Of a DNA stretch of 64,000 nucleotides, positions 18 through 60,553 are shown piece after piece; the stretch's first letter is position 1; each line of letters opens with the position of its first letter. The stretch spans positions 1-64,000 of the IMG/VR virus record IMGVR_UViG_3300021255_001218. One strand, 5' to 3'. Both the position numbers and the translations under genes were made by a program. Under the pieces are notes generated by a model. It was given only the letters and a program-made list of their open reading frames with translations, did no database searches and was not told the DNA's origin. Origin of the DNA: a virus. Its lineage: Duplodnaviria; Caudoviricetes.

Positions 18-2480
18 ATGAGCAGATTAGATTTCTGTAATATGGCTCCAAAGATAGGATTTTATCAAGAAGATACAGTAAGTGTAATGCCGAAATATAA
101 TATGAACCATCCTGCGTCAGGTATATTTATTACGACAGATGCCTCTGGTAATGAAGTGGCATACTTTATGGCTGATGATGGCGGTTATGCTCGGCAAACC
201 CGTTTCTTCCAAGCTTATCGTACTAAACAAACACAGGTGTTTATTTATAACAATAATGTTTGTACTCCTGGTTTCTGTAATACATTGGGTGTATATATAA
301 CTGGTATATATACACTGGATAACGATTATATTATAGTAAACTGCTCTAATAACAGATGCTATATAGTGGATACTAAGTTTAGTTATGATGTAAGTCAATG
401 GACTACATACAAAGATATTACTAGTATAAGAGATAATTATGGATGGAGTATGATAAGATTCTTTAGAAAATGGGGAACCATAGCATGTTATAGTCATTTA
501 AATTATAATCTTAAAAATAGATATGATAGTAAAGTATTAAGAATATTTAGATATAGTGATTTATCATTGCTTAAGACTTTTAACTTAGAGAATGAAAAGA
601 TGTATGTAGATTTAAATGCTATATATGGTAGTAGTAGAAGATTCTTCCCTGCTAGTAGTCCATATCATAGTATTTATAGAGCACAAGACCTAACTGTAGA
701 CTGGACTTATTATCATTGGGGTAGCTATGGTATGCTTATGTTACCAGAACGTGGTATATTATGCTATGACCACGGTAGCTGGTTAATGGGCAACATTACA
801 TATGAACCAGGAAGTGATTTTAGTAGTTGGTCTTCTACATCAGTACAGGTAAGATATAATATACCTGAATCTTATTACTATAATAATACTAATAATAACG
901 GTGCTAATATTAATATAGCTGAAATTCGTATAGGCCAAGGTGCTCCTGGCCATGCAGCTGGTACTAATAATTCTTACGATTCATTTAAAGGAAATTATTA
1001 TCGTGGTCAGATAGATGATAACTACATCAATAATGGTGTGCATCAAAGAAAATTTCCAATGGCTAGTCAGAGTACAGCTACTGGTTGCTTTGGCTATAAC
1101 GACCAGGATAGTAAAGGTGTATGGAGAAATCTTACTGCAGCTGACGCATCTAACTGGGGTAAGTTTGTATTCCCATTCTATGTAGTATGGGATCATGTAA
1201 TAATGAATTCCCAGAATAAACAAGGTAATCATCTTACTTATTTCCAAGAATGTAGATTAATAGCTGGTCAGGAAAATAACCATTACTTTGAACCCAAACC
1301 TGGTAAGTATTTTGAGATTTCTTTTGGCGATTTTAATCCTACTATGCTTAGATCAGATCCTAGTGGTTTAGTTTTTTGTAGGCAAACTAATAATCAGTTA
1401 TTGATAGTCTATTCTTATTATGATTCTGCTAATAAACGTTTAGTAGCTGAGCAAGTAAATCAGGTTACTACTTCAAACTCGTTTACTTCTAATAGATCAA
1501 CTTATCGTACACTGAATTTCGATTTAAATATTAAGATTCCTACTTCTCATAGTGGATATAATATTTCTTATGGAGCAGTTTTCCACAATCCTTTAGGAAA
1601 TTATTGGATAATTTGTTGTACTACTAGAACTAATGGTACTTATAATAGATACCCAGTAATATTCTTTGTAAATTCTGCAGGTACTGTTACTACATTTAAT
1701 AACTGCTTTACTAAATTCGCTTCCAATGCACATAGTGATACTAAAACTGCTCGTGCAAATGGTGGTATAGATGAATCTAACTGGACTTTTAAAACTATGA
1801 ATTGTGTTTCTGCAACTTATAATGTATTAGGTATTTATGCTAACTACACTTCTACTGACCAACATTGGGTAGGTTACTTTACAGTAGAATTTAATTCTTC
1901 TTATAATAACTTTACTTCTAGAAATGTACCTCGTAATACTTCATATGTGTGGTCGTTCTCTAATGGGTGGTTTGCACAGCAGTTATATTATAGTGGTCCA
2001 GCATTAGGATTTATTCATGGTGATAATCAAGGATATTCTCAGATTATAAGGTCTTTTGCATCTCAGAAACCTTTCTTAGCATTTTCTGGTTCAGCTACTT
2101 ATTCTGATGATGATTTTATAATTAATAATAGGGAAAATCGCTATTATTTCTGGTGCAGATCTTCTACAGGCTTACGTTGTTTCGTACCGGCTATTGATAT
2201 ATTCTTAGGTGGTTATTATTCTGAAATGCTTGAAGCTGTAGAAGTACCATTAGTTGGTAATGCTACTAACTATATTTATATGGAAAGGCCTAAAGATTCT
2301 CGTGATAAGATTAATTGCTTCGCTGATACTACTCAGATGATTCCTGTTGGTTCTCGTCAGTTCTCTCGTATCTTAGTAGCTAAAATAGTTACAGATGATG
2401 AAGGACCAACTGATATTACCTATTATCACGTTAATACAGGATATAATGATTATATGTTCCACTATGGTCAGCATTATTAA
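18..2480 (+). CDS. putative tail fibre / receptor-binding virion protein
   Basis: 820 aa, N/Y/G/S/T-rich beta-type composition, adjacent to the structural cluster; RBS AGGAG upstream. Confidence 0.45.
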   Translation: MSRLDFCNMAPKIGFYQEDTVSVMPKYNMNHPASGIFITTDASGNEVAYFMADDGGYARQTRFFQAYRTKQTQVFIYNNNVCTPGFCNTLGVYITGIYTLDNDYIIVNCSNNRCYIVDTKFSYDVSQWTTYKDITSIRDNYGWSMIRFFRKWGTIACYSHLNYNLKNRYDSKVLRIFRYSDLSLLKTFNLENEKMYVDLNAIYGSSRRFFPASSPYHSIYRAQDLTVDWTYYHWGSYGMLMLPERGILCYDHGSWLMGNITYEPGSDFSSWSSTSVQVRYNIPESYYYNNTNNNGANINIAEIRIGQGAPGHAAGTNNSYDSFKGNYYRGQIDDNYINNGVHQRKFPMASQSTATGCFGYNDQDSKGVWRNLTAADASNWGKFVFPFYVVWDHVIMNSQNKQGNHLTYFQECRLIAGQENNHYFEPKPGKYFEISFGDFNPTMLRSDPSGLVFCRQTNNQLLIVYSYYDSANKRLVAEQVNQVTTSNSFTSNRSTYRTLNFDLNIKIPTSHSGYNISYGAVFHNPLGNYWIICCTTRTNGTYNRYPVIFFVNSAGTVTTFNNCFTKFASNAHSDTKTARANGGIDESNWTFKTMNCVSATYNVLGIYANYTSTDQHWVGYFTVEFNSSYNNFTSRNVPRNTSYVWSFSNGWFAQQLYYSGPALGFIHGDNQGYSQIIRSFASQKPFLAFSGSATYSDDDFIINNRENRYYFWCRSSTGLRCFVPAIDIFLGGYYSEMLEAVEVPLVGNATNYIYMERPKDSRDKINCFADTTQMIPVGSRQFSRILVAKIVTDDEGPTDITYYHVNTGYNDYMFHYGQHY

Positions 2481-2498
2481 TACTATATACAAAATATT

Positions 2499-2524
2499 AG
2501 GAGAACCCATAATAGGGTTCTCCT
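2499..2524. terminator. bidirectional hairpin between convergent genes
   Basis: AGGAGAACCC-ataata-GGGTTCTCCT. Confidence 0.75.
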
Positions 2525-2534
2525 TTATTATTTG

Positions 2535-3791
2535 TTAATATTGTCTATGACTAGCAGTGAGATTATTTCTTTCTTCTTTATTCCAATACTCAAAAAAGCT
2601 AGCAGCTCTTTTATCATCGGAATTATTCTCGAATCTATACTTATATTTCTCATCACTCTTATATCCAGGAGGATTTACATAATCCCTATGTCTCTGGATT
2701 TCTATCTGATCCATTACTATATCTATATTGGATTTATCTTGTGTATAAAATCCAGGAGCACCATATATCTTATGGTCTATATGCTTAGAACTCTCCTCCT
2801 CTTCTTGTTTAGTTACAATCTCAGATTCAGGATGAGTATTATGTATAGATCTATGTACTACATCGAAAGACTCTCTGTGTAAACAGTCAGTACAAAATGC
2901 TATTTCATCAAACTCTATTTGAGGTCCTTCTTGCATTATAAATGTACTATCGGCTATATCATCATAGTTCCCTATCTTTAATCCACTAAAAGTGTAATCA
3001 AAATTTCCTGTATAATATTGATCATAATATAACACTCCATCTATAAAGATTCTTAATCTATTATCTGTATCCATACACATCATGAAGTTTATAAAATAAT
3101 CTCCACTATATGTATCGTAATCGTACAGTATATCAAACTCTAATTGATAGTATCTGAAATGTATAACTCTCTTTAGTTTAGTATTATTACTAGACGGTTT
3201 CCAGAATAATTTAATCTCACCATTTTTCCACCATACACCATAGATTTGTTTATCATACTTCAATGCTTCTATAAGATAATGCCTTTCTATCTTATAGAAG
3301 AAAGAGAATGTAAACATCTTGTTTTCAGATACATCTATATCTCTCTTAGAATAGATATAAGTATAAGGATATTTAAACTTTAAGCTTCTATATCCTAATT
3401 TAGCAAGATTAGTTATAGCCGATGGGTTAGTAGTATCAAATACAGTAGAGTATGGAGAATAACCATAAGTATCATTATTGTTTACAAATCCCCAAGGATT
3501 ATCTATCCTTTCTATATCATTAAAGCAATGGTTAGCATCCCATTCTTTAAAATAGAGTGTAGATACAAAGTCTCTAGCTAATATATCTTTACTAGGGTCT
3601 ATAGAAGGATCTACACTCTTATTACTATTCCCCCAAGTAGCAGGATTTTCTTTACTATTCAAATCATATCCAGTATCACTATTAGAGTTATAATTAGTTG
3701 ATATAGGAATAGCGTTTTTAACATTAGTATTCATTGCACTTCCACTAGGATATGGTTGTGGAGATTCATAACGTAAAGTAGGTGTAGGCAT
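2535..3791 (-). CDS. virion structural protein with LamG/concanavalin-like domain
   Basis: FTFSFFYK...RLRIFIDG...FDEIAF pattern typical of LamG-like folds; last gene of the minus-strand structural run. Confidence 0.5.
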   Translation of the reverse strand: MPTPTLRYESPQPYPSGSAMNTNVKNAIPISTNYNSNSDTGYDLNSKENPATWGNSNKSVDPSIDPSKDILARDFVSTLYFKEWDANHCFNDIERIDNPWGFVNNNDTYGYSPYSTVFDTTNPSAITNLAKLGYRSLKFKYPYTYIYSKRDIDVSENKMFTFSFFYKIERHYLIEALKYDKQIYGVWWKNGEIKLFWKPSSNNTKLKRVIHFRYYQLEFDILYDYDTYSGDYFINFMMCMDTDNRLRIFIDGVLYYDQYYTGNFDYTFSGLKIGNYDDIADSTFIMQEGPQIEFDEIAFCTDCLHRESFDVVHRSIHNTHPESEIVTKQEEEESSKHIDHKIYGAPGFYTQDKSNIDIVMDQIEIQRHRDYVNPPGYKSDEKYKYRFENNSDDKRAASFFEYWNKEERNNLTASHRQY

Positions 3792-17128: not shown

Positions 17129-17145
17129 TATATACTATAAAAGTG
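17129..17145 (+). promoter_or_regulatory. early-type promoter TATATACTATA-N4-TG
   Basis: motif recurs at about 13 intergenic sites. Confidence 0.65.
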
Positions 17146-21076: not shown

Positions 21077-21120
21077 TACTCTGGTGTTAAAAATGGCATA
21101 AAGTATATACTATAAAAGTG
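21077..21120. promoter_or_regulatory. divergent late (minus) and early (plus) promoters
   Basis: AACA-CCAGAG-TA on minus (21088..21077); TATATACTATA-AAAG-TG on plus (21104..21120). Confidence 0.6.
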
Positions 21121-22979: not shown

Positions 22980-23012
22980 AACTATATACTATATTATTGG
23001 AGGAGATTTACA

Positions 23013-32545: not shown

Positions 32546-32664
32546 AATGCGTAGAGAGGGGAATTTAATCCCCTCTCTATTAACATGCCTTTTAGTTATA
32601 TACTATAATATTGATAATATACATTTATATGTATAAAGTAATTGTATAATGGAGGAGAAGTAAA

Positions 32665-36303: not shown

Positions 36304-36309
36304 AAAATA

Positions 36310-36331
36310 GGGGCAGCTTAATTGCTGCCCC
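36310..36331. terminator. bidirectional terminator
   Basis: GGGGCAGC-ttaatt-GCTGCCCC with T-rich runs on both strands. Confidence 0.85.
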
Positions 36332-36360
36332 TTATTATTTTTTTTCTAGTAATACTAACC

Positions 36361-36426
36361 TTAGCCAAATATGGCTTCGATTAGTATTACTAAAATCTCT
36401 GTGTCATCGGCTGGACGGGGACGCAT
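36361..36426 (-). CDS. 21-aa peptide MRPRPADDTEILVILIEAIFG (not in ORF track)
   Basis: AAGGAGGTGA RBS; TAATG coupling to the upstream ORF. Confidence 0.4.
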   Translation of the reverse strand: MRPRPADDTEILVILIEAIFG

Positions 36427-36596
36427 TAGAATTCACCTCCTTCTTCGTCGACGACACTGCGATTGTATCTAGAATCCTCCAGTGCCCAGTCTAATTGGGA
36501 CTGATCATATACCGACATGCCATAATCGCTATCATTGTCACAGTCACCGTCATAATAGAGTTCAATTTGATCTTCAAAATCCATTACATCATACAT
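36426..36596 (-). CDS. 56-aa highly acidic protein (not in ORF track)
   Basis: MYDVMDFEDQIELYYDGDCDNDSDYG...DEEGGEF; 18 D/E versus 2 R; AAGGAGG RBS; early motif at 36668..36684. Confidence 0.7.
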   Translation of the reverse strand: MYDVMDFEDQIELYYDGDCDNDSDYGMSVYDQSQLDWALEDSRYNRSVVDEEGGEF

Positions 36597-36690
36597 GATA
36601 ACTCCTCCTTAGAGTTGACACAGGGATCACTGTTTTACATGATACTCTTGTACCACAACCCTATTATCATAATTATAATATATAACCAAA
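36594..36690 (-). promoter_or_regulatory. early promoter plus conserved structured leader (copy A)
   Basis: closely similar to 56090..56190. Confidence 0.75.
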
Positions 36691-36766
36691 AAATATAGGA
36701 ATTACATCTTGGTATCATAGAAAATTTACAAAAAAGAGAAGGGAATCCATTCCCTCCTCTTTTTAC

Positions 36767-37015
36767 TTAGTCGCAGTAGCTCCAACCACAACTGTGACAG
36801 CCAGTAAATAAGTTAGTCTCAGCATCTTTCTTATGATAATGCCAAGGCTCACCAGGCTTTTCGGATTCTTCCGGAAAATATATGGGTTCTCCACACTTCC
36901 AACAGAATCCACTTGCAGGAACGAAGTTCGGATAGTGGTGTTCGCTACAGAACTTCTCCTGTGCCTCCAAGCACTCTTGCAGATACTTCTTCTGGTCTTC
37001 ATTTAATTCTCTCAT
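36767..37015 (-). CDS. small Zn-ribbon protein
   Basis: CWKC and CHSC...YCD; early motif at 37075..37091. Confidence 0.7.
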   Translation of the reverse strand: MRELNEDQKKYLQECLEAQEKFCSEHHYPNFVPASGFCWKCGEPIYFPEESEKPGEPWHYHKKDAETNLFTGCHSCGWSYCD

Positions 37016-37158
37016 ATTACCCTCTCCTCTTAAAAAATTGAATAGAATTAAACTATAGATAGTATTGCTACTATCACATCTATAATATATAATTATAAAT
37101 TATTTTTATCTATACACTTTAATAAATTTTATTATTCTATTTATTTAGGGGGTTAATA

Positions 37159-44503: not shown

Positions 44504-44604
44504 ATGATAATGTTGTATAGGGTATTATTATTTTAAACTATATACTATAAAAATGTAAGCAGTATTATTATACTGACTTATAAATTATTTAGGAGGTTTT
44601 GCTA

Positions 44605-46820: not shown

Positions 46821-48740
46821 ATGCTAATAGTAGATGGGTATGAGCCTGGTAGTAATTTAACAATAATCAATGTAATTTATCAATATGCTAAGAAAGATCC
46901 TGAGACTGGTAAACGTACAAAAGATTTCGCAATTATTGTGTATAAAGATAATAATACTGGTGAGAAACATGCTACCACAATATATGAACCAGAATATACA
47001 TGGTATTTAGTAAAAGAAGGAAGACATCCAGATCCACACTTTGCTGAATTTGATGATGTAATTCCTATAACTTGTAAGTATTCTGAGGTTACTAAATCTA
47101 TAGCAAAAGAGACTGGTAATCTGGCATTATATAATAAAAATATACAAGATGGGAATTGGAGATTAAATAAACAATTCTTCTTACACCCAAGAAGTTATGG
47201 TGCAGATATACCAATCAAGAATTATTTGAGAATACAGTTTAATGAAACTTATAAGAATCCTATAATAGATTTGGATGTAATGTTTTTCGATACAGAAGCA
47301 GATATTATTAATTCATTGAATGATAATCCAGTAATGGGTGAATGCCCGACTGTAATGATATCTGCTATATATCCAAAGACTAATACAGTGTATTGTTTTA
47401 TGGTAAGAAATCCTAAGAATCCTCAAATAGAGAAATTAGAGAATTCTATTAAAGAAAATTTTGAAAAGATTAAAGCTGAGGTACATGAGTATATAAGAAA
47501 GCAGTTAGGAAAAGAGTATGATAAATATGCTAGTGTAGCTACACCAGAATTATCTATAGGATTCTTTGATACTGAGATTGAAATGTATATCACATTCTTT
47601 GATTTAATTAATCAATTAAGTCCTGATTTATTAATAGCATGGAATGGATTCGGATACGATTATGCTCAGATTACTGAACGTATTAAGGTATTAGGATATA
47701 ATCCGGCTGATGTTATATGTGATAGGAGAATTAAACCTAAAGTATTTGAATTGTTTATAGATGAGAAGAATAAGAATGACCCACAACAGAGAACTGATTA
47801 TGCAGATATATCAGTTATGTATGTATGGCAAGATGATATGATTATATATGCATCTCGTCGTAAAGGTGGTAAAGTAATAGAGTCCTTTTCATTGGATTAT
47901 ATTGGTGGTACAGAATGTAATGTACATAAATTCGACTATCATGAGATTACTACTAATATCGCTAAGTTCCCATGGTTAAATTATAAGCTGTTTTGGATAT
48001 ATAATATCTTAGACGTATTAGTTCAGGTTTGTATCGAAATAGCTACACAAGATATAAAGTTTATGTTTAATAACGTTATCGAGATGAATACATCTTTTGA
48101 TAAGATTTGGAGACAGACTAACTTCTTAGCAGCTAAAGGTGCAGACTTTTATATACATCATGAGAACGTTGTAATGGGTAATAATACGAATAGATTTAAT
48201 GATAAACCTTCGGAGAAATTCCCTGGTGCATTTGTAGCTAGACCTAACTTATTATCCGATAAGAATAAAGTAAAGACTCCATTAGGTACTATTAGTAAGT
48301 ATAATAATGCTGATGACTGGGATTATAAATCTCTGTATCCTTCTTTGATGCGTGAGTTTAATACAAGTCCTTCTACATTAATTGGTATGATACAGATAGA
48401 AGATGCACCATATCATGATCCAGATTATCTTAGAATAGCACCAGGTGGTACTTTTGTAGAGAACTTGGCATCTTATAACTATATTGAGTTCTGTCATAGA
48501 TGGCTTAATATGGCTAATGTAGAAGAAGCATTAGAAGACTTTGAAGAGTATTTTAATACTTATAGAACCCCAATGTATAAAGGAGAGGGTAATTTAGAAT
48601 TTGATAGAACGCGAAAAGTTATAGCTTATCATACAGATACAATAAATGGAAATCGCATGATAGCAAGTGTAGAAAGACCCATACCTGATTGGATATGGCA
48701 AGAAGTAAATAAAATAAGAGCGTCTATACCTATTAAATAA
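46821..48740 (+). CDS. B-family DNA polymerase, N-terminal subunit (3'-5' exonuclease + motif A)
   Basis: ExoI FFDTEAD, ExoII AWNGFGYD, ExoIII YNILDV, motif A DYKSLYPS; motifs B and C absent. Confidence 0.9.
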   Translation: MLIVDGYEPGSNLTIINVIYQYAKKDPETGKRTKDFAIIVYKDNNTGEKHATTIYEPEYTWYLVKEGRHPDPHFAEFDDVIPITCKYSEVTKSIAKETGNLALYNKNIQDGNWRLNKQFFLHPRSYGADIPIKNYLRIQFNETYKNPIIDLDVMFFDTEADIINSLNDNPVMGECPTVMISAIYPKTNTVYCFMVRNPKNPQIEKLENSIKENFEKIKAEVHEYIRKQLGKEYDKYASVATPELSIGFFDTEIEMYITFFDLINQLSPDLLIAWNGFGYDYAQITERIKVLGYNPADVICDRRIKPKVFELFIDEKNKNDPQQRTDYADISVMYVWQDDMIIYASRRKGGKVIESFSLDYIGGTECNVHKFDYHEITTNIAKFPWLNYKLFWIYNILDVLVQVCIEIATQDIKFMFNNVIEMNTSFDKIWRQTNFLAAKGADFYIHHENVVMGNNTNRFNDKPSEKFPGAFVARPNLLSDKNKVKTPLGTISKYNNADDWDYKSLYPSLMREFNTSPSTLIGMIQIEDAPYHDPDYLRIAPGGTFVENLASYNYIEFCHRWLNMANVEEALEDFEEYFNTYRTPMYKGEGNLEFDRTRKVIAYHTDTINGNRMIASVERPIPDWIWQEVNKIRASIPIK

Positions 48741-50884: not shown

Positions 50885-50980
50885 GATATTTTGTAAAATA
50901 TACTATGCTTATATACTATAATATTGAGTGATAATAAATTGCAGTGTTAAAATCTAATTTAATTTTAAGGAGAGAGTTTA

Positions 50981-55539: not shown

Positions 55540-55648
55540 ATTACTAACCCCCTTTCAATCGTATTACCCATATTATTAAAATGTAAAAATTGACAAAAAA
55601 ATTTGGCCCCCGTAAGGAGGCCAATAATTAAAAGGAGGTTTTAACCGC

Positions 55649-56092
55649 TTATGCGGAATAAGTCATTTCAAAATGATCCAGGAACTCGCCATACTCAGCA
55701 TATTCTGCAATCGATTTTTCCGTAAGCATTTTGTAAAAATCTAATGCTTCTTTGGTATCGCAGAAGATACATTTTACAATTCGGTCATCGGCGTCTTTCA
55801 TTTTCATCTCGGCATAGTAATCGTGTTCCGGCAATTTCGGAAGCTCACTGGTTCCCGCTACATAGATATAGTAGCTGTATTTGTTGTCAACCAGAAATGA
55901 ATACTTCCAAATGCCATCGCCGATTTTTTCCTTCTTATAAGATTCAGTAAATCCGAATCTTTTCTGAAGGTCTCCAATATTGGAGACAAACGATTCTCCA
56001 ATATTATTCAGCATGATTGCAGCTTCTTCTTCCGTAAACTTACTGTCTACAACCGGCAAACCATTGATGGAAACGATAATAGTGTTCTTCAT
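55649..56092 (-). CDS. hypothetical early protein
   Basis: GC-richer ORF driven by the duplicated promoter/leader. Confidence 0.65.
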   Translation of the reverse strand: MKNTIIVSINGLPVVDSKFTEEEAAIMLNNIGESFVSNIGDLQKRFGFTESYKKEKIGDGIWKYSFLVDNKYSYYIYVAGTSELPKLPEHDYYAEMKMKDADDRIVKCIFCDTKEALDFYKMLTEKSIAEYAEYGEFLDHFEMTYSA

Positions 56093-56190
56093 GATAAACT
56101 CCTCCTAGAGTTGATATAAGGGTCACTGTTTTCCGTGATACTCACTCTTGGCATCACAACCTTATTATCACCTCTATAATATATAATCGA
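56090..56190 (-). promoter_or_regulatory. early promoter plus conserved structured leader (copy B)
   Basis: closely similar to 36594..36690. Confidence 0.75.
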
Positions 56191-56278
56191 AATATATCAC
56201 TTTTACACTATTTTTATTGGGTATCACAGGTATTTTACCAAAAAAATATAGGGAGTCCTATATAAGGACTCCCTTTTA

Positions 56279-56542: not shown

Positions 56543-58663
56543 TTATAAAGATAATATATTAGAATGAGTTATAGTCTTAGACTCCATCTTACTAATACCT
56601 ATTTCCTCAAATGGGAAACTTCTAAGATTATCCTGAATGATTGTAGTATAATCAATAAACGGTATAATCCAGTCAGGAATTTCTATATTAGTAGGAATAG
56701 CTATAGCAGATATATCACTAAACCCTTTAGTCTCTAATAACTTCATTAATCTTAAGAAATGCTCTGGATGAGTCTCTGCTATAAGATTAGCATTCTTTTT
56801 ACTTATATTAACTTTGATGATTAATACAGTATTTCTTTCCTCAAGATTAATACCTTCTTCATCTCTAGATTTTATAGTATTATAAGCTACAGATGCTTTT
56901 ATACCCTGAACACTCATAGGATTCTTATAGTTACTAAGAGACTTAATACGTGCAGGTTTATGATACTCTTTATTCTTAGCTTTAATGGATGCATAGATTT
57001 CACGTTCAAAGATTACAAACTTCTTTAACAAATCTACTTGGTCTACAAAACTCTTTCTTAATATATCAAACTCTATAAAATCACTTAACTTCTTAGATGT
57101 AGACTCTGGTATACCCATCTTATATATCGGCATACCTTTAATATCAAACTGCTTATCCTCAGGAATTATATTACCTTCTTGCAATAACTGCTGAGAAGCA
57201 TAATTCTTCTTCTGATACAATTTCAATAACATTGCTCTGAATAAGAATTCATTCTTCATTATAAGCAAGCACTTTCTATCTCCCTTAGTATTATAATTCT
57301 CGGAGAATAATACCATATAATCCATTATAAGATTCGATACTATATTGGAGATTATATTGATTATACTATAACGAAGATTATCTTCCTCTATAATAACTGC
57401 TGGATATGTAAGTCTCTTCTTCTCTACTAACTTATCATTATAGAAGTCATATTCATTAGTAGGTTCAGTATGCTGATATTCCATAATAACCTTATCGGTT
57501 ACTTCCATAATCTCTTCTTTGGTATACTTAATATTCATAGGTATACCCATAGTCTTAGGTAATACATATCTATACCATTCATCAAGAGATACTACACAAG
57601 AGTCTGTATCTGTAAGTAATACCACATCTCGTATCATTGTATATACACGTTCTATCTTATCTATATAGATATGACGATAATATACATATTCATACATAAG
57701 ATCTTTAAGTAAAGTAAGATCATCCATAATCTCTTTAGGTGGTTTATTAGGATTAAGGAATGGCTTATCTAGAGTTACAAGTATCCGTATTATTATTTCA
57801 GATACTACTCTATTCTCACAGAATGTATATAGATTATTCTTATAATAAACCATATTTAATTGCTCTTGGTTAAGATTGTTGATAGTATTCCAAATTGCTT
57901 TAACTGCTTCATCTGATGGTACCCAAGAATTGAATCCACAATTATGCATTACTTTTAGGAAACATTCCTCAACTCCTATCATTCTATCTAATATCATATA
58001 GTCATTAAACTTACGTGGTTTAGTAAGATCTAAACAGATATTATCTATAAACGTAAGTACTTCAGTAAGAGAACCGAACTTTACATTATTTGCTAAGAAC
58101 GATTCAAACATTGTAATCGCTGCAGATATACAACCACGACCCTGGCCAGTAACTGCAGTACAAAGATAGAGATTGTAATATATAGAAGAATACTGACCAG
58201 CACAACCATATAATGCATTACAAGCTACTTTGTAGTTCTTCTGTAATAAGTTATAATCATCATATTCTTTACTACCCTTAGGAAACGTTTTCATCTTTTC
58301 TTTTGCTTCTTCACGTTTATCTAAGAAGTATTGGATAAGATTATAAAATGGATTCTTTACTGTACCATGCTTAGCAAATAATACACCCTGTGTAGACATG
58401 ATCATAGAGTCTTTTAATAGACTATCTATCAATCTTGTAATATCTACATTATCCAATGTATTAATATGGTTATTATGAATCTTTACTTCTCTGGTTCTAA
58501 ATCTCTTACTTATACTATAATTAATAGCCTCCGATATTTCAAATGGTTGTAACTTAGGACATACTTTAGCTACAATGGTATACAACGTACTAGCATATCT
58601 TTCAAGTATTAACCTATCAGGAACTTTCTCTTTAAACGTTTCACTCAATGAAAAATCTTGCAT
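56543..58663 (-). CDS. B-family DNA polymerase, C-terminal subunit (motifs B and C)
   Basis: QKNYKVACNALYG, TGQGR, LTDTDS, KNEF, KKNYA, IKG. Confidence 0.9.
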   Translation of the reverse strand: MQDFSLSETFKEKVPDRLILERYASTLYTIVAKVCPKLQPFEISEAINYSISKRFRTREVKIHNNHINTLDNVDITRLIDSLLKDSMIMSTQGVLFAKHGTVKNPFYNLIQYFLDKREEAKEKMKTFPKGSKEYDDYNLLQKNYKVACNALYGCAGQYSSIYYNLYLCTAVTGQGRGCISAAITMFESFLANNVKFGSLTEVLTFIDNICLDLTKPRKFNDYMILDRMIGVEECFLKVMHNCGFNSWVPSDEAVKAIWNTINNLNQEQLNMVYYKNNLYTFCENRVVSEIIIRILVTLDKPFLNPNKPPKEIMDDLTLLKDLMYEYVYYRHIYIDKIERVYTMIRDVVLLTDTDSCVVSLDEWYRYVLPKTMGIPMNIKYTKEEIMEVTDKVIMEYQHTEPTNEYDFYNDKLVEKKRLTYPAVIIEEDNLRYSIINIISNIVSNLIMDYMVLFSENYNTKGDRKCLLIMKNEFLFRAMLLKLYQKKNYASQQLLQEGNIIPEDKQFDIKGMPIYKMGIPESTSKKLSDFIEFDILRKSFVDQVDLLKKFVIFEREIYASIKAKNKEYHKPARIKSLSNYKNPMSVQGIKASVAYNTIKSRDEEGINLEERNTVLIIKVNISKKNANLIAETHPEHFLRLMKLLETKGFSDISAIAIPTNIEIPDWIIPFIDYTTIIQDNLRSFPFEEIGISKMESKTITHSNILSL

Positions 58664-59709: not shown

Positions 59710-59855
59710 TTATCTTTCCTCCTTCATATTTATAGTATATAATAGTTTAAGATTTTATAAATATTTAAAAAAGAGCTAGGGCAACATAGATATAATGATC
59801 TGTGATTTCTTTAAAATATTTGTACAAATAAAATAACCCTTAAGGAGGAATTTAA

Positions 59856-60347: not shown

Positions 60348-60553
60348 AAATATACTTCTAAAAATGGGATGGAGTTTTATACTCCATCCCAACTATATTT
60401 TTAAATATATACTATAAAAATGATAGGGTGGTGATAATATAAAGGTAATAATACAGATTGGATTTGAGATTCATAATCTCAAATCCTAAAAGTCTGAAAA
60501 CAATCTTATAAACTTATTTCTATTCTTTTTTGTCTTAGATATAAATTTGGAGG

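Follow-up and report, generated by a model that had tools for sequence, protein, structure and literature searches.

Early promoters of the Bacillus phage AR9, which are read by the virion RNA polymerase (RNAP), have the form AAATATATATTAT-(6N)-G+1, and transcripts of phiKZ and phiR1-37 likewise start 6 nt past the promoter consensus (PMC5312081). The published transcriptomes of jumbo phages report short early 5′ untranslated regions (UTRs) and no repeated leader. A 5′-terminal stem combined with a strong ribosome-binding site (RBS) is the classic mRNA-stabilizing arrangement of Firmicutes. In Bacillus subtilis, downstream mRNA is stabilized by an RBS or by a hairpin located at the 5′ end or close to it, and RppH requires at least two unpaired 5′ nucleotides (PMC3997798). 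The PeSL cassettes of T4-type phages are composed of a terminator and an early promoter, and units shuffle at these cassettes among non-essential ORFans (PMC2839356, PMC4122927). Here we describe a repeated phage cassette in which a promoter of the AR9 type is followed by a compact RNA element of ~75 nt that contains three covarying helices and is absent from Rfam.

The window, i.e., the whole 64,000-nt stretch of DNA analyzed, covers positions 1 to 64,000 of an IMG/VR record (G000) of 94,410 bp, which is rated 35% complete. Its gene products include a B-family DNA polymerase that is both split and divergent, a DnaB-like helicase (likewise divergent), and a gyrase B-like protein, as well as a Dda-like helicase, a dUTPase, and virion proteins. 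The open reading frame (ORF) at 60554-62818 matches phrog_3015, the RNA polymerase beta subunit (E value of 1e-51), and is the sole RNAP subunit seen in the 94-kb fragment. The nearest polymerases found by tblastn are those of Bacillus phages AR9 and PBS1 and of staphylococcal jumbo phages (~25% identity); two complete uncultivated relatives, G001 (342 kb) and G002 (333 kb), have polymerases with ~60% identity. Judged by its polymerase, helicase, and RNAP beta-like genes and by the 333- to 342-kb size of these complete relatives, the record comes from an uncultivated phage that belongs, as a remote relative, to the jumbo phages with multisubunit RNAPs of their own. The exonuclease and catalytic parts of the split DNA polymerase are encoded by separate genes located 8 kb apart on opposite strands (46821-48740, plus, and 56543-58663, minus), with one of the cassettes described below, copy B, lying directly downstream of the catalytic part.

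The cassette was initially noticed as two copies, A and B, whose minus-strand sequences proved to be exactly as quoted in the preliminary description. They extend from the promoter core to the ATG codons at 36594-36596 (copy A) and 56090-56092 (copy B). Two degenerate 27- to 31-nt patterns derived from them each matched A and B alone in the window and had no matches in 100 dinucleotide shuffles. The original count of two was, however, too low, as the record contains four copies, two of them (C and D) outside the window. The stretch over which the copies are similar spans from ~60 nt 5′ of the promoter core to the ATG: the four leaders are 76 to 84% identical to each other, and the first 180 nt of the coding regions show 51 to 68% identity in gapped global alignments of the four copies, which is the background level in AT-rich DNA. 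Additional leaders were gathered by pattern scans of IMG/VR and JGI metagenomes and then with a covariance model built from eight copies. This survey of the genome and its relatives, of the kind that had been proposed at the outset, brought the total to 15 distinct leaders, all from the phage of the window and a handful of its close relatives, with compensatory changes in their helices. These leaders precede at least seven unrelated protein families (56, 147, 81, 78, 97, 77, and 148 aa).

In each unit, the terminator that ends the preceding gene is followed by a short upstream box and an early promoter of the AR9 type, presumably read by a virion RNAP; then come a structured 5′ UTR of 72 to 77 nt, a strong Shine-Dalgarno sequence, a single small ORFan, and a terminator that belongs to the unit itself (Table 1). 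The upstream box CT[A/G]TGATACC and the upstream terminators reported in the preliminary description are present at both A and B, with the terminators located 40 to 70 nt 5′ of the promoters. A near-identical terminator, with the stem GGCCGCCCA/UGGGCGGUC, is reused between ORFan units of the record (G000 80846-80880 and 81673-81705) and of its relative L133 (3785-3815 and 4393-4425). In the variant of this terminator found 5′ of copy D, the two arms of the stem have changed in a compensatory manner (GACCACCCA/UGGGUGGUC). Transcription unit A also contains, before its closing terminator, a 21-codon ORF (36361-36426, minus strand) that has its own GGAGGTG ribosome-binding site and whose start overlaps the stop codon of the 56-aa ORF (TAATG). 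An upstream ORF within the leader was considered and rejected: the frame in B has 21 codons and ends on the start codon, and those in A and D stop after 1 to 3 codons and lack an RBS.

Table 1. Cassette components and related features (window coordinates unless G000 is given)
Feature	Position	Strand	Basis or remark
Intrinsic terminator at the 5′ edge of cassette A, belonging to the upstream gene	36731..36764	-	15-pair stem, then T run
Upstream box CTATGATACC, cassette A	36711..36720	-	Same box 5′ of B, D, and several relatives' copies
Promoter core TATATATTAT, cassette A	36675..36684	-	Fits AR9 early consensus; predicted start G 36668
Leader A, 5′ domain	36617..36668	-	Consensus fold, pair counts, single-sequence minimum free energy (MFE)
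Leader A, P1	36659-36668 with 36617-36625	-	Consensus fold, pair counts, MFE
Leader A, P2	36651-36656 with 36639-36644	-	Consensus fold, pair counts, MFE
Leader A, A-rich junction	36626-36638	-	Consensus fold
Leader A, hairpin P3	36600..36616	-	Shine-Dalgarno AGGA in loop, its last two G paired
ORF A, highly acidic 56-aa ORFan	36426..36596	-	Orthologues in L135 and L138 with same leader
Terminator closing transcription unit A	36309..36332	-	Terminator scan
Intrinsic terminator 5′ of cassette B	56250..56274	-	Terminator scan
Upstream box CTGTGATACC, cassette B	56220..56229	-	Sequence
Promoter core, cassette B	56176..56185	-	AR9 consensus; predicted start G 56169
Leader B, 5′ domain	56113..56169	-	Consensus fold, pair counts, MFE
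Leader B, P1	56160-56169 with 56113-56121	-	Consensus fold, pair counts, MFE
Leader B, P2	56153-56157 with 56135-56139	-	Consensus fold, pair counts, MFE
Leader B, junction	56122-56134	-	Consensus fold
Leader B, Shine-Dalgarno hairpin P3	56097..56112	-	Fold and pairing counts
ORF B, 147-aa ORFan	55649..56092	-	Monocistronic unit
Terminator closing monocistronic unit B	55603..55624	-	Terminator scan
Copy C	G000 80895-80990	+	Outside window
Copy D	G000 81323-81415	+	Outside window
Family 2 sister cassette	37058..37091; core 37082-37091	-	Same core TATATATTAT; predicted start 37075
Family 2 plain hairpin, 5′-terminal	37058-37075	-	Opens leader of 82-aa ORF 36767-37015
Further family 2 starts	G000 80331 (+), 90309 (-)		Outside window
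C-class promoters TATATACTAT-N5-TG	17129-17145, 21104-21120, 22983-22999, 32597-32613, 44539-44555, 50910-50926, 60406-60422	+	
C-class promoter TATATACTAT-N5-TG	59725-59741	-	

The promoter core of the cassette fits the AR9 early consensus, including its spacing to the G. Because of this fit to TATATATTAT-N6-G+1, the predicted first transcribed base is the G of TGATA in both copies; the start site, as well as the early timing, would be carried over from AR9, a phage whose DNA polymerase is only ~25% identical to that of the record. The record contains 16 sites of the form TATATAYTAT-N5-TG, compared to ~1.2 expected, all of them intergenic and aimed at a gene, and the G at the predicted start position is preceded by T in all 16. 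Each of the complete relatives (333 to 342 kb) carries ~40 such sites, against 0 to 2 for a reversed control. The AT-rich core, ending in ATATATATTAT, is of the AR9 type, with the exact TATATATTAT at 7 of the 16 sites and a single C substitution at the remaining 9; the AAA that comes before the AR9 core is not conserved at the sites of this record. The seven exact-core sites are followed by leaders of 60 to 77 nt that all start with GATARTA and lead to small ORFans with a mean GC content of 37.7%. The nine C-class sites (C at core position 7) have mostly short leaders (14 to 55 nt, with one of 141 nt) that are unrelated to each other, and precede longer genes or operons with a mean GC content of 30.2%, among them the RNAP beta-like gene and the operons of the two helicases (DnaB-like and Dda-like). 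These C-class sites may form a temporal class of their own, or they may be weaker versions of the early promoter. A host sigma-70 promoter was also considered for the cassettes and discarded, as there is no sigma-70-like match on the cassette strand at A or B.

The helices of the leader were derived with RNAalifold and by counting pairs over the 15 distinct leaders. Helix P1 is formed by the first ten bases downstream of the predicted start, GAUAAUAAGG, and CCUUAUAUC located ~40 nt downstream; it is fully (100%) paired in all leaders, and its variation comprises several G-U wobbles and one double change, from A-U to G-C, although the leaders are few and closely related and many of the P1 changes are A-to-G transitions that keep the pairing automatically. 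The G-U wobble variants are meaningful only as RNA transcribed in this orientation. Inside P1 lies P2, a hairpin of 5 to 8 bp with two covarying positions, whose arms come in four types (GUGAU/AUCAC, GUGGUA/UAUCAU, GUAGAC/GUCUAC, and GUAAGG/UCUUAC) and whose loop keeps GAGU; the pairing register survives insertions and deletions in that loop. Taken together, P1 and P2 are 98% paired over the 15 leaders, compared to 27 to 59% when the partners are slid, with three pairs changed on both sides and a covariation score that was reached by none of 500 shuffles. P2 is followed by an A-rich single strand of 12 to 13 nt, in which six A residues (four consecutive ones and two more) are invariant in the 15 leaders and about half of the columns vary. 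The third helix, P3, is a hairpin of 5 to 7 bp that has the AGGA of the RBS in its loop, with a 3′ arm that opens with the last two G of this motif. It shows double-sided changes at three positions (the arm variants are AACUCU/GGAGUU, AUCUCU/GGAGAU, AAGACUU/AGGUCUU, AGCCU/GGGCU, and AGUCU/GGACU), and the observed pairing was reached in 0 of 2,000 shuffles. P3 is absent in the four D-type leaders and weak or missing in L139 and therefore cannot be essential.

For 9 of the 14 full-length leaders, the single-sequence MFE fold contains both P2 and a P1 that starts at position +1; P3 accompanies them wherever the leader has one. Folding z-scores are modest: those of the whole leaders A and B are -1.25 and -1.29, and those of the 5′ domain range from -0.8 to -2.8. 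The stems originally drawn for copies A and B, an outer GGTTG/CAACT and an inner TCAY/GTGA, fare worse than P1, P2, and P3: they are 88% paired, without double changes, and were equaled by 492 of 500 shuffles. Likewise, the AGAGT/ACTCT pairing that had been suggested as an alternative next to the RBS is 67% paired, which is no better than in shuffles, and the leaders yielded neither a pseudoknot nor any other conserved alternative pairing. At the gathering threshold, Rfam 15 recognizes two tRNAs in the window and does not match the leaders; with E values of up to 10 allowed, the only hits over the leader core are terminator-like ones attributable to chance.

A second type of leader (family 2) accompanies the exact core in a sister cassette next to copy A and at two further starts in the record. 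In these leaders, GAUAGUA folds directly onto UACUAUC via a four-base loop. All seven exact-core transcripts would therefore begin, from the predicted start, with a 5′-terminal stem, in two different architectures. AR9 early leaders, on the other hand, are mostly short and unstructured, so the 5′ stem is a feature of this lineage and not a requirement of the polymerase. One AR9 early leader (L166, 251023-251040, minus strand) has the same 5′ arm as the cassette: its GAUAAUA pairs with UAUUAUC 17 nt further on. Two early leaders of G002, the 333-kb relative with 60% polymerase identity (L167 and L193), pair their first 7 to 9 bases with the bases before the start codon, enclosing an inner hairpin and the RBS; the theme is that of P1, and the sequences are unrelated.

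The genes behind the leaders are ORFans. According to blastp, the products of ORFs A and B are unrelated to each other, in agreement with the preliminary description, and both ORFs have a higher GC content (40.4% and 38.1%, respectively) than the record as a whole (31.3%). The seven leader-linked protein families show no significant similarity among themselves, and none of them matches a Pfam or PHROG family at a significant E value; a marginal Pfam match to NCKAP5 (E value of 0.009) was below the cutoff for that family and was disregarded. For protein B, only 5 homologous clusters were found; one homologue, with 58% identity, is encoded by a contig of 323,660 bp, the best of the intermediate relatives, and none was found in the complete relatives G001 and G002. 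Three paralogous segments of ~1 kb (G000 87275-88338, 88497-89593, and 91632-92688, outside the window) all match the same stretches of L137 and L139 with 70 to 77% identity and point to a repeated gene family beside the early ORFan region.

Close relatives display four different gene arrangements at the locus that corresponds to 80 to 82 kb of the record. The gene order is X-G′-C-D in G000 and X-C-G″-D in L133, with flanks that are 96 to 97% identical, and the BLAST segments of this rearrangement meet within a 23-bp block that extends from the promoter core to position +6 (one junction mapped). A 45-kb relative has the order X-G-D, without unit C, and its orthologue of B, located 25 kb away, has a P2 of the C type. 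L143 has G-D, where G is preceded by a family 1 leader, as opposed to the family 2 leader of its G000 orthologue (54% identical). In L138, an extra unit that is missing in the phage of the window is found between the 82-aa gene and cassette A (2380-2650, minus strand) and comprises an exact early promoter, a short leader with a 5′ hairpin, an ORF of ~58 aa, and a terminator. Comparison of the genes behind the copies thus reveals order swaps, insertions and deletions, and orthologues with differing leader types, and the suggestion that the cassettes act as recombination handles holds up: whole cassette-bounded units are swapped, inserted, and deleted, with the mapped junction falling into the promoter block. 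Since the promoter and start block is near-identical between units, it would provide sites of homologous exchange through which whole ORFan units could be swapped, gained, or lost.

All copies of the motif belong to a single narrow clade of phages. The covariance model (R1) found no third copy in the window, no match in 100 other AT-rich viral loci that have the promoter-plus-TGATA pattern, and only weak matches (E values of 0.005 to 0.9), unrelated on inspection, in the relatives with 60% polymerase identity. Likewise, blastn against 50,697 cultured-phage records gave no match.

The interpretation that we favor, and regard as reasonably probable, is that of a PeSL-like early cassette whose leader stabilizes the mRNA and tunes its translation and whose units are exchanged at the cassettes. 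The repeat, the match to the AR9 promoter, and the helices are well supported, and the shuffling of cassette-bounded units was observed directly; the start site, the polymerase that uses the promoter, the early timing, and the effects on mRNA stability and translation are inferred. The first ten bases of the transcript would be held in P1, leaving no unpaired base at the 5′ end; P1 would enclose P2 and the A-rich strand of 12 to 13 nt, and P3 would display the AGGA of the RBS in its loop while pairing the last two G. Such a leader could protect early mRNAs from 5′-end-dependent decay and set the rate of their translation. This role is favored chiefly because a stem that starts from the first base is common to all seven exact-core transcripts; it presupposes a host with RNase J and RppH, which we assume. 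The upstream box and the invariant A residues of the junction lie outside of what a stabilizer role explains. The idea of a cis-regulatory RNA for early genes, put forward in the preliminary description, is supported with altered details: the AR9-type promoter, the covarying helices, and the association with at least seven unrelated ORFans speak for it, whereas the helices differ from those originally drawn.

The invariant junction residues are among the features that could point instead to a true regulatory RNA, a binding site for a phage or host protein or for a small ligand that switches the ORFan mRNAs together, for example, in an early shut-off where an activity like that of RegA or RegB would target the exposed Shine-Dalgarno hairpin. 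The presence of the same element on at least seven unrelated genes, the six A residues and the GAGU of the P2 loop kept unchanged, the GGA of the RBS shown in the loop of P3, and the resemblance of the closing-stem architecture and size (52 to 57 nt) to those of small aptamers would all fit this explanation. Nevertheless, we deem it unlikely, as the leaders match no Rfam family and show no conserved alternative pairing or pseudoknot (AGAGU/ACUCU pairing is equal to that in shuffles), about half of the junction columns vary, D-type leaders do without P3, no candidate binding protein was found, and the conservation itself may just reflect the young age of the copies. That young age, together with the restriction to one narrow clade, the blank result of the model in the relatives with 60% polymerase identity, the evident recombination between copies, and the weak folding z-scores, could also mean that the leader has no function as RNA and is promoter-proximal DNA carried along by a promoter that was duplicated recently, and either kept alike by gene conversion or required by the phage polymerase as a downstream promoter or initial-transcribed element. 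GATA is also common at AR9 early starts, so a part of the 5′ arm of P1 may indeed be a promoter feature. Still, compensatory double changes in all three helices and strand-specific G-U wobbles would not arise from drift or a DNA role, the pairing register is kept across the P2-loop indels, and the second leader family keeps its 5′-terminal stem in another architecture, which makes a leader without an RNA function quite improbable.

A role for the 5′ domain as an abundant early small RNA, such as a decoy for a host nuclease or a defense sensor, with the ORFs being secondary, appears highly improbable. Several copies do seem to stand behind strong early-type promoters, and small RNAs derived from 5′ UTRs have been reported in the jumbo phage 201phi2-1 (PMC11512511), but none of the copies has a terminator or a U run after P1, no processing signal was recognized, and each leader leads directly to a strong RBS and an ORF that is conserved in relatives.

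With these cassettes, the early promoter code of the AR9 type reaches a distantly related clade of uncultivated jumbo phages, and modular shuffling in the PeSL style is shown not to be restricted to T4-type phages with host-RNAP promoters. The element of ~75 nt can be tested as an mRNA stabilizer or a translation leader in Gram-positive hosts, and the ORFans, being GC-richer, patchily distributed, and predicted to be early, form a ready list of candidate genes for host takeover or anti-defense functions. A more far-reaching and rather doubtful proposal is that the leader represents a new class of phage cis-regulatory RNA, a tag for a regulon of accessory immediate-early mRNAs. If true, such a tag, spread among genes by cassette exchange, would place these mRNAs under one shared control by a phage or host factor, be it timed shut-off, selective translation, or protection during degradation of the host mRNA. 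As the motif has been seen in one narrow clade only, its general reach is limited.

In comparison with the described systems, the cassettes share with the early promoters of the AR9/phiKZ type the AT-rich core TATATATTAT, the fixed 6-nt spacing to the G, the presence of tens of copies per genome, and the location of these sites in front of RNAP and replication genes as well as small hypothetical ones, with an RNAP beta-like protein and AR9-like replication proteins encoded here as well. They differ in that AR9 has AAA before the core, whereas here it is not kept and there is an additional class with C at core position 7. Furthermore, AR9 leaders are mostly short and mutually unrelated, whereas here one promoter class bears a repeated leader that, as judged from sequence, is structured. 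Like the PeSL elements of T4-type phages, these are small composite cassettes of a terminator and an early promoter that are repeated between ORFans, and close relatives differ by insertions, deletions, replacements, and changes of order with junctions at the cassettes. PeSL promoters, however, are sigma-70-like and served by the host RNAP, whereas those described here are of the phage-RNAP type, and the stem-loop of PeSL is a terminator, whereas here the promoter is also followed by a conserved, covarying 5′ UTR. With the aprE and ompA leader stabilizers of Firmicutes and E. coli, respectively, the leader has in common a stem that begins at the first (here, predicted) transcribed base and a strong RBS close behind it. 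Those leaders belong to single genes, whereas here one leader family is found on many genes, and, while plain stabilizers need neither an inner hairpin nor a conserved junction, this leader has both.
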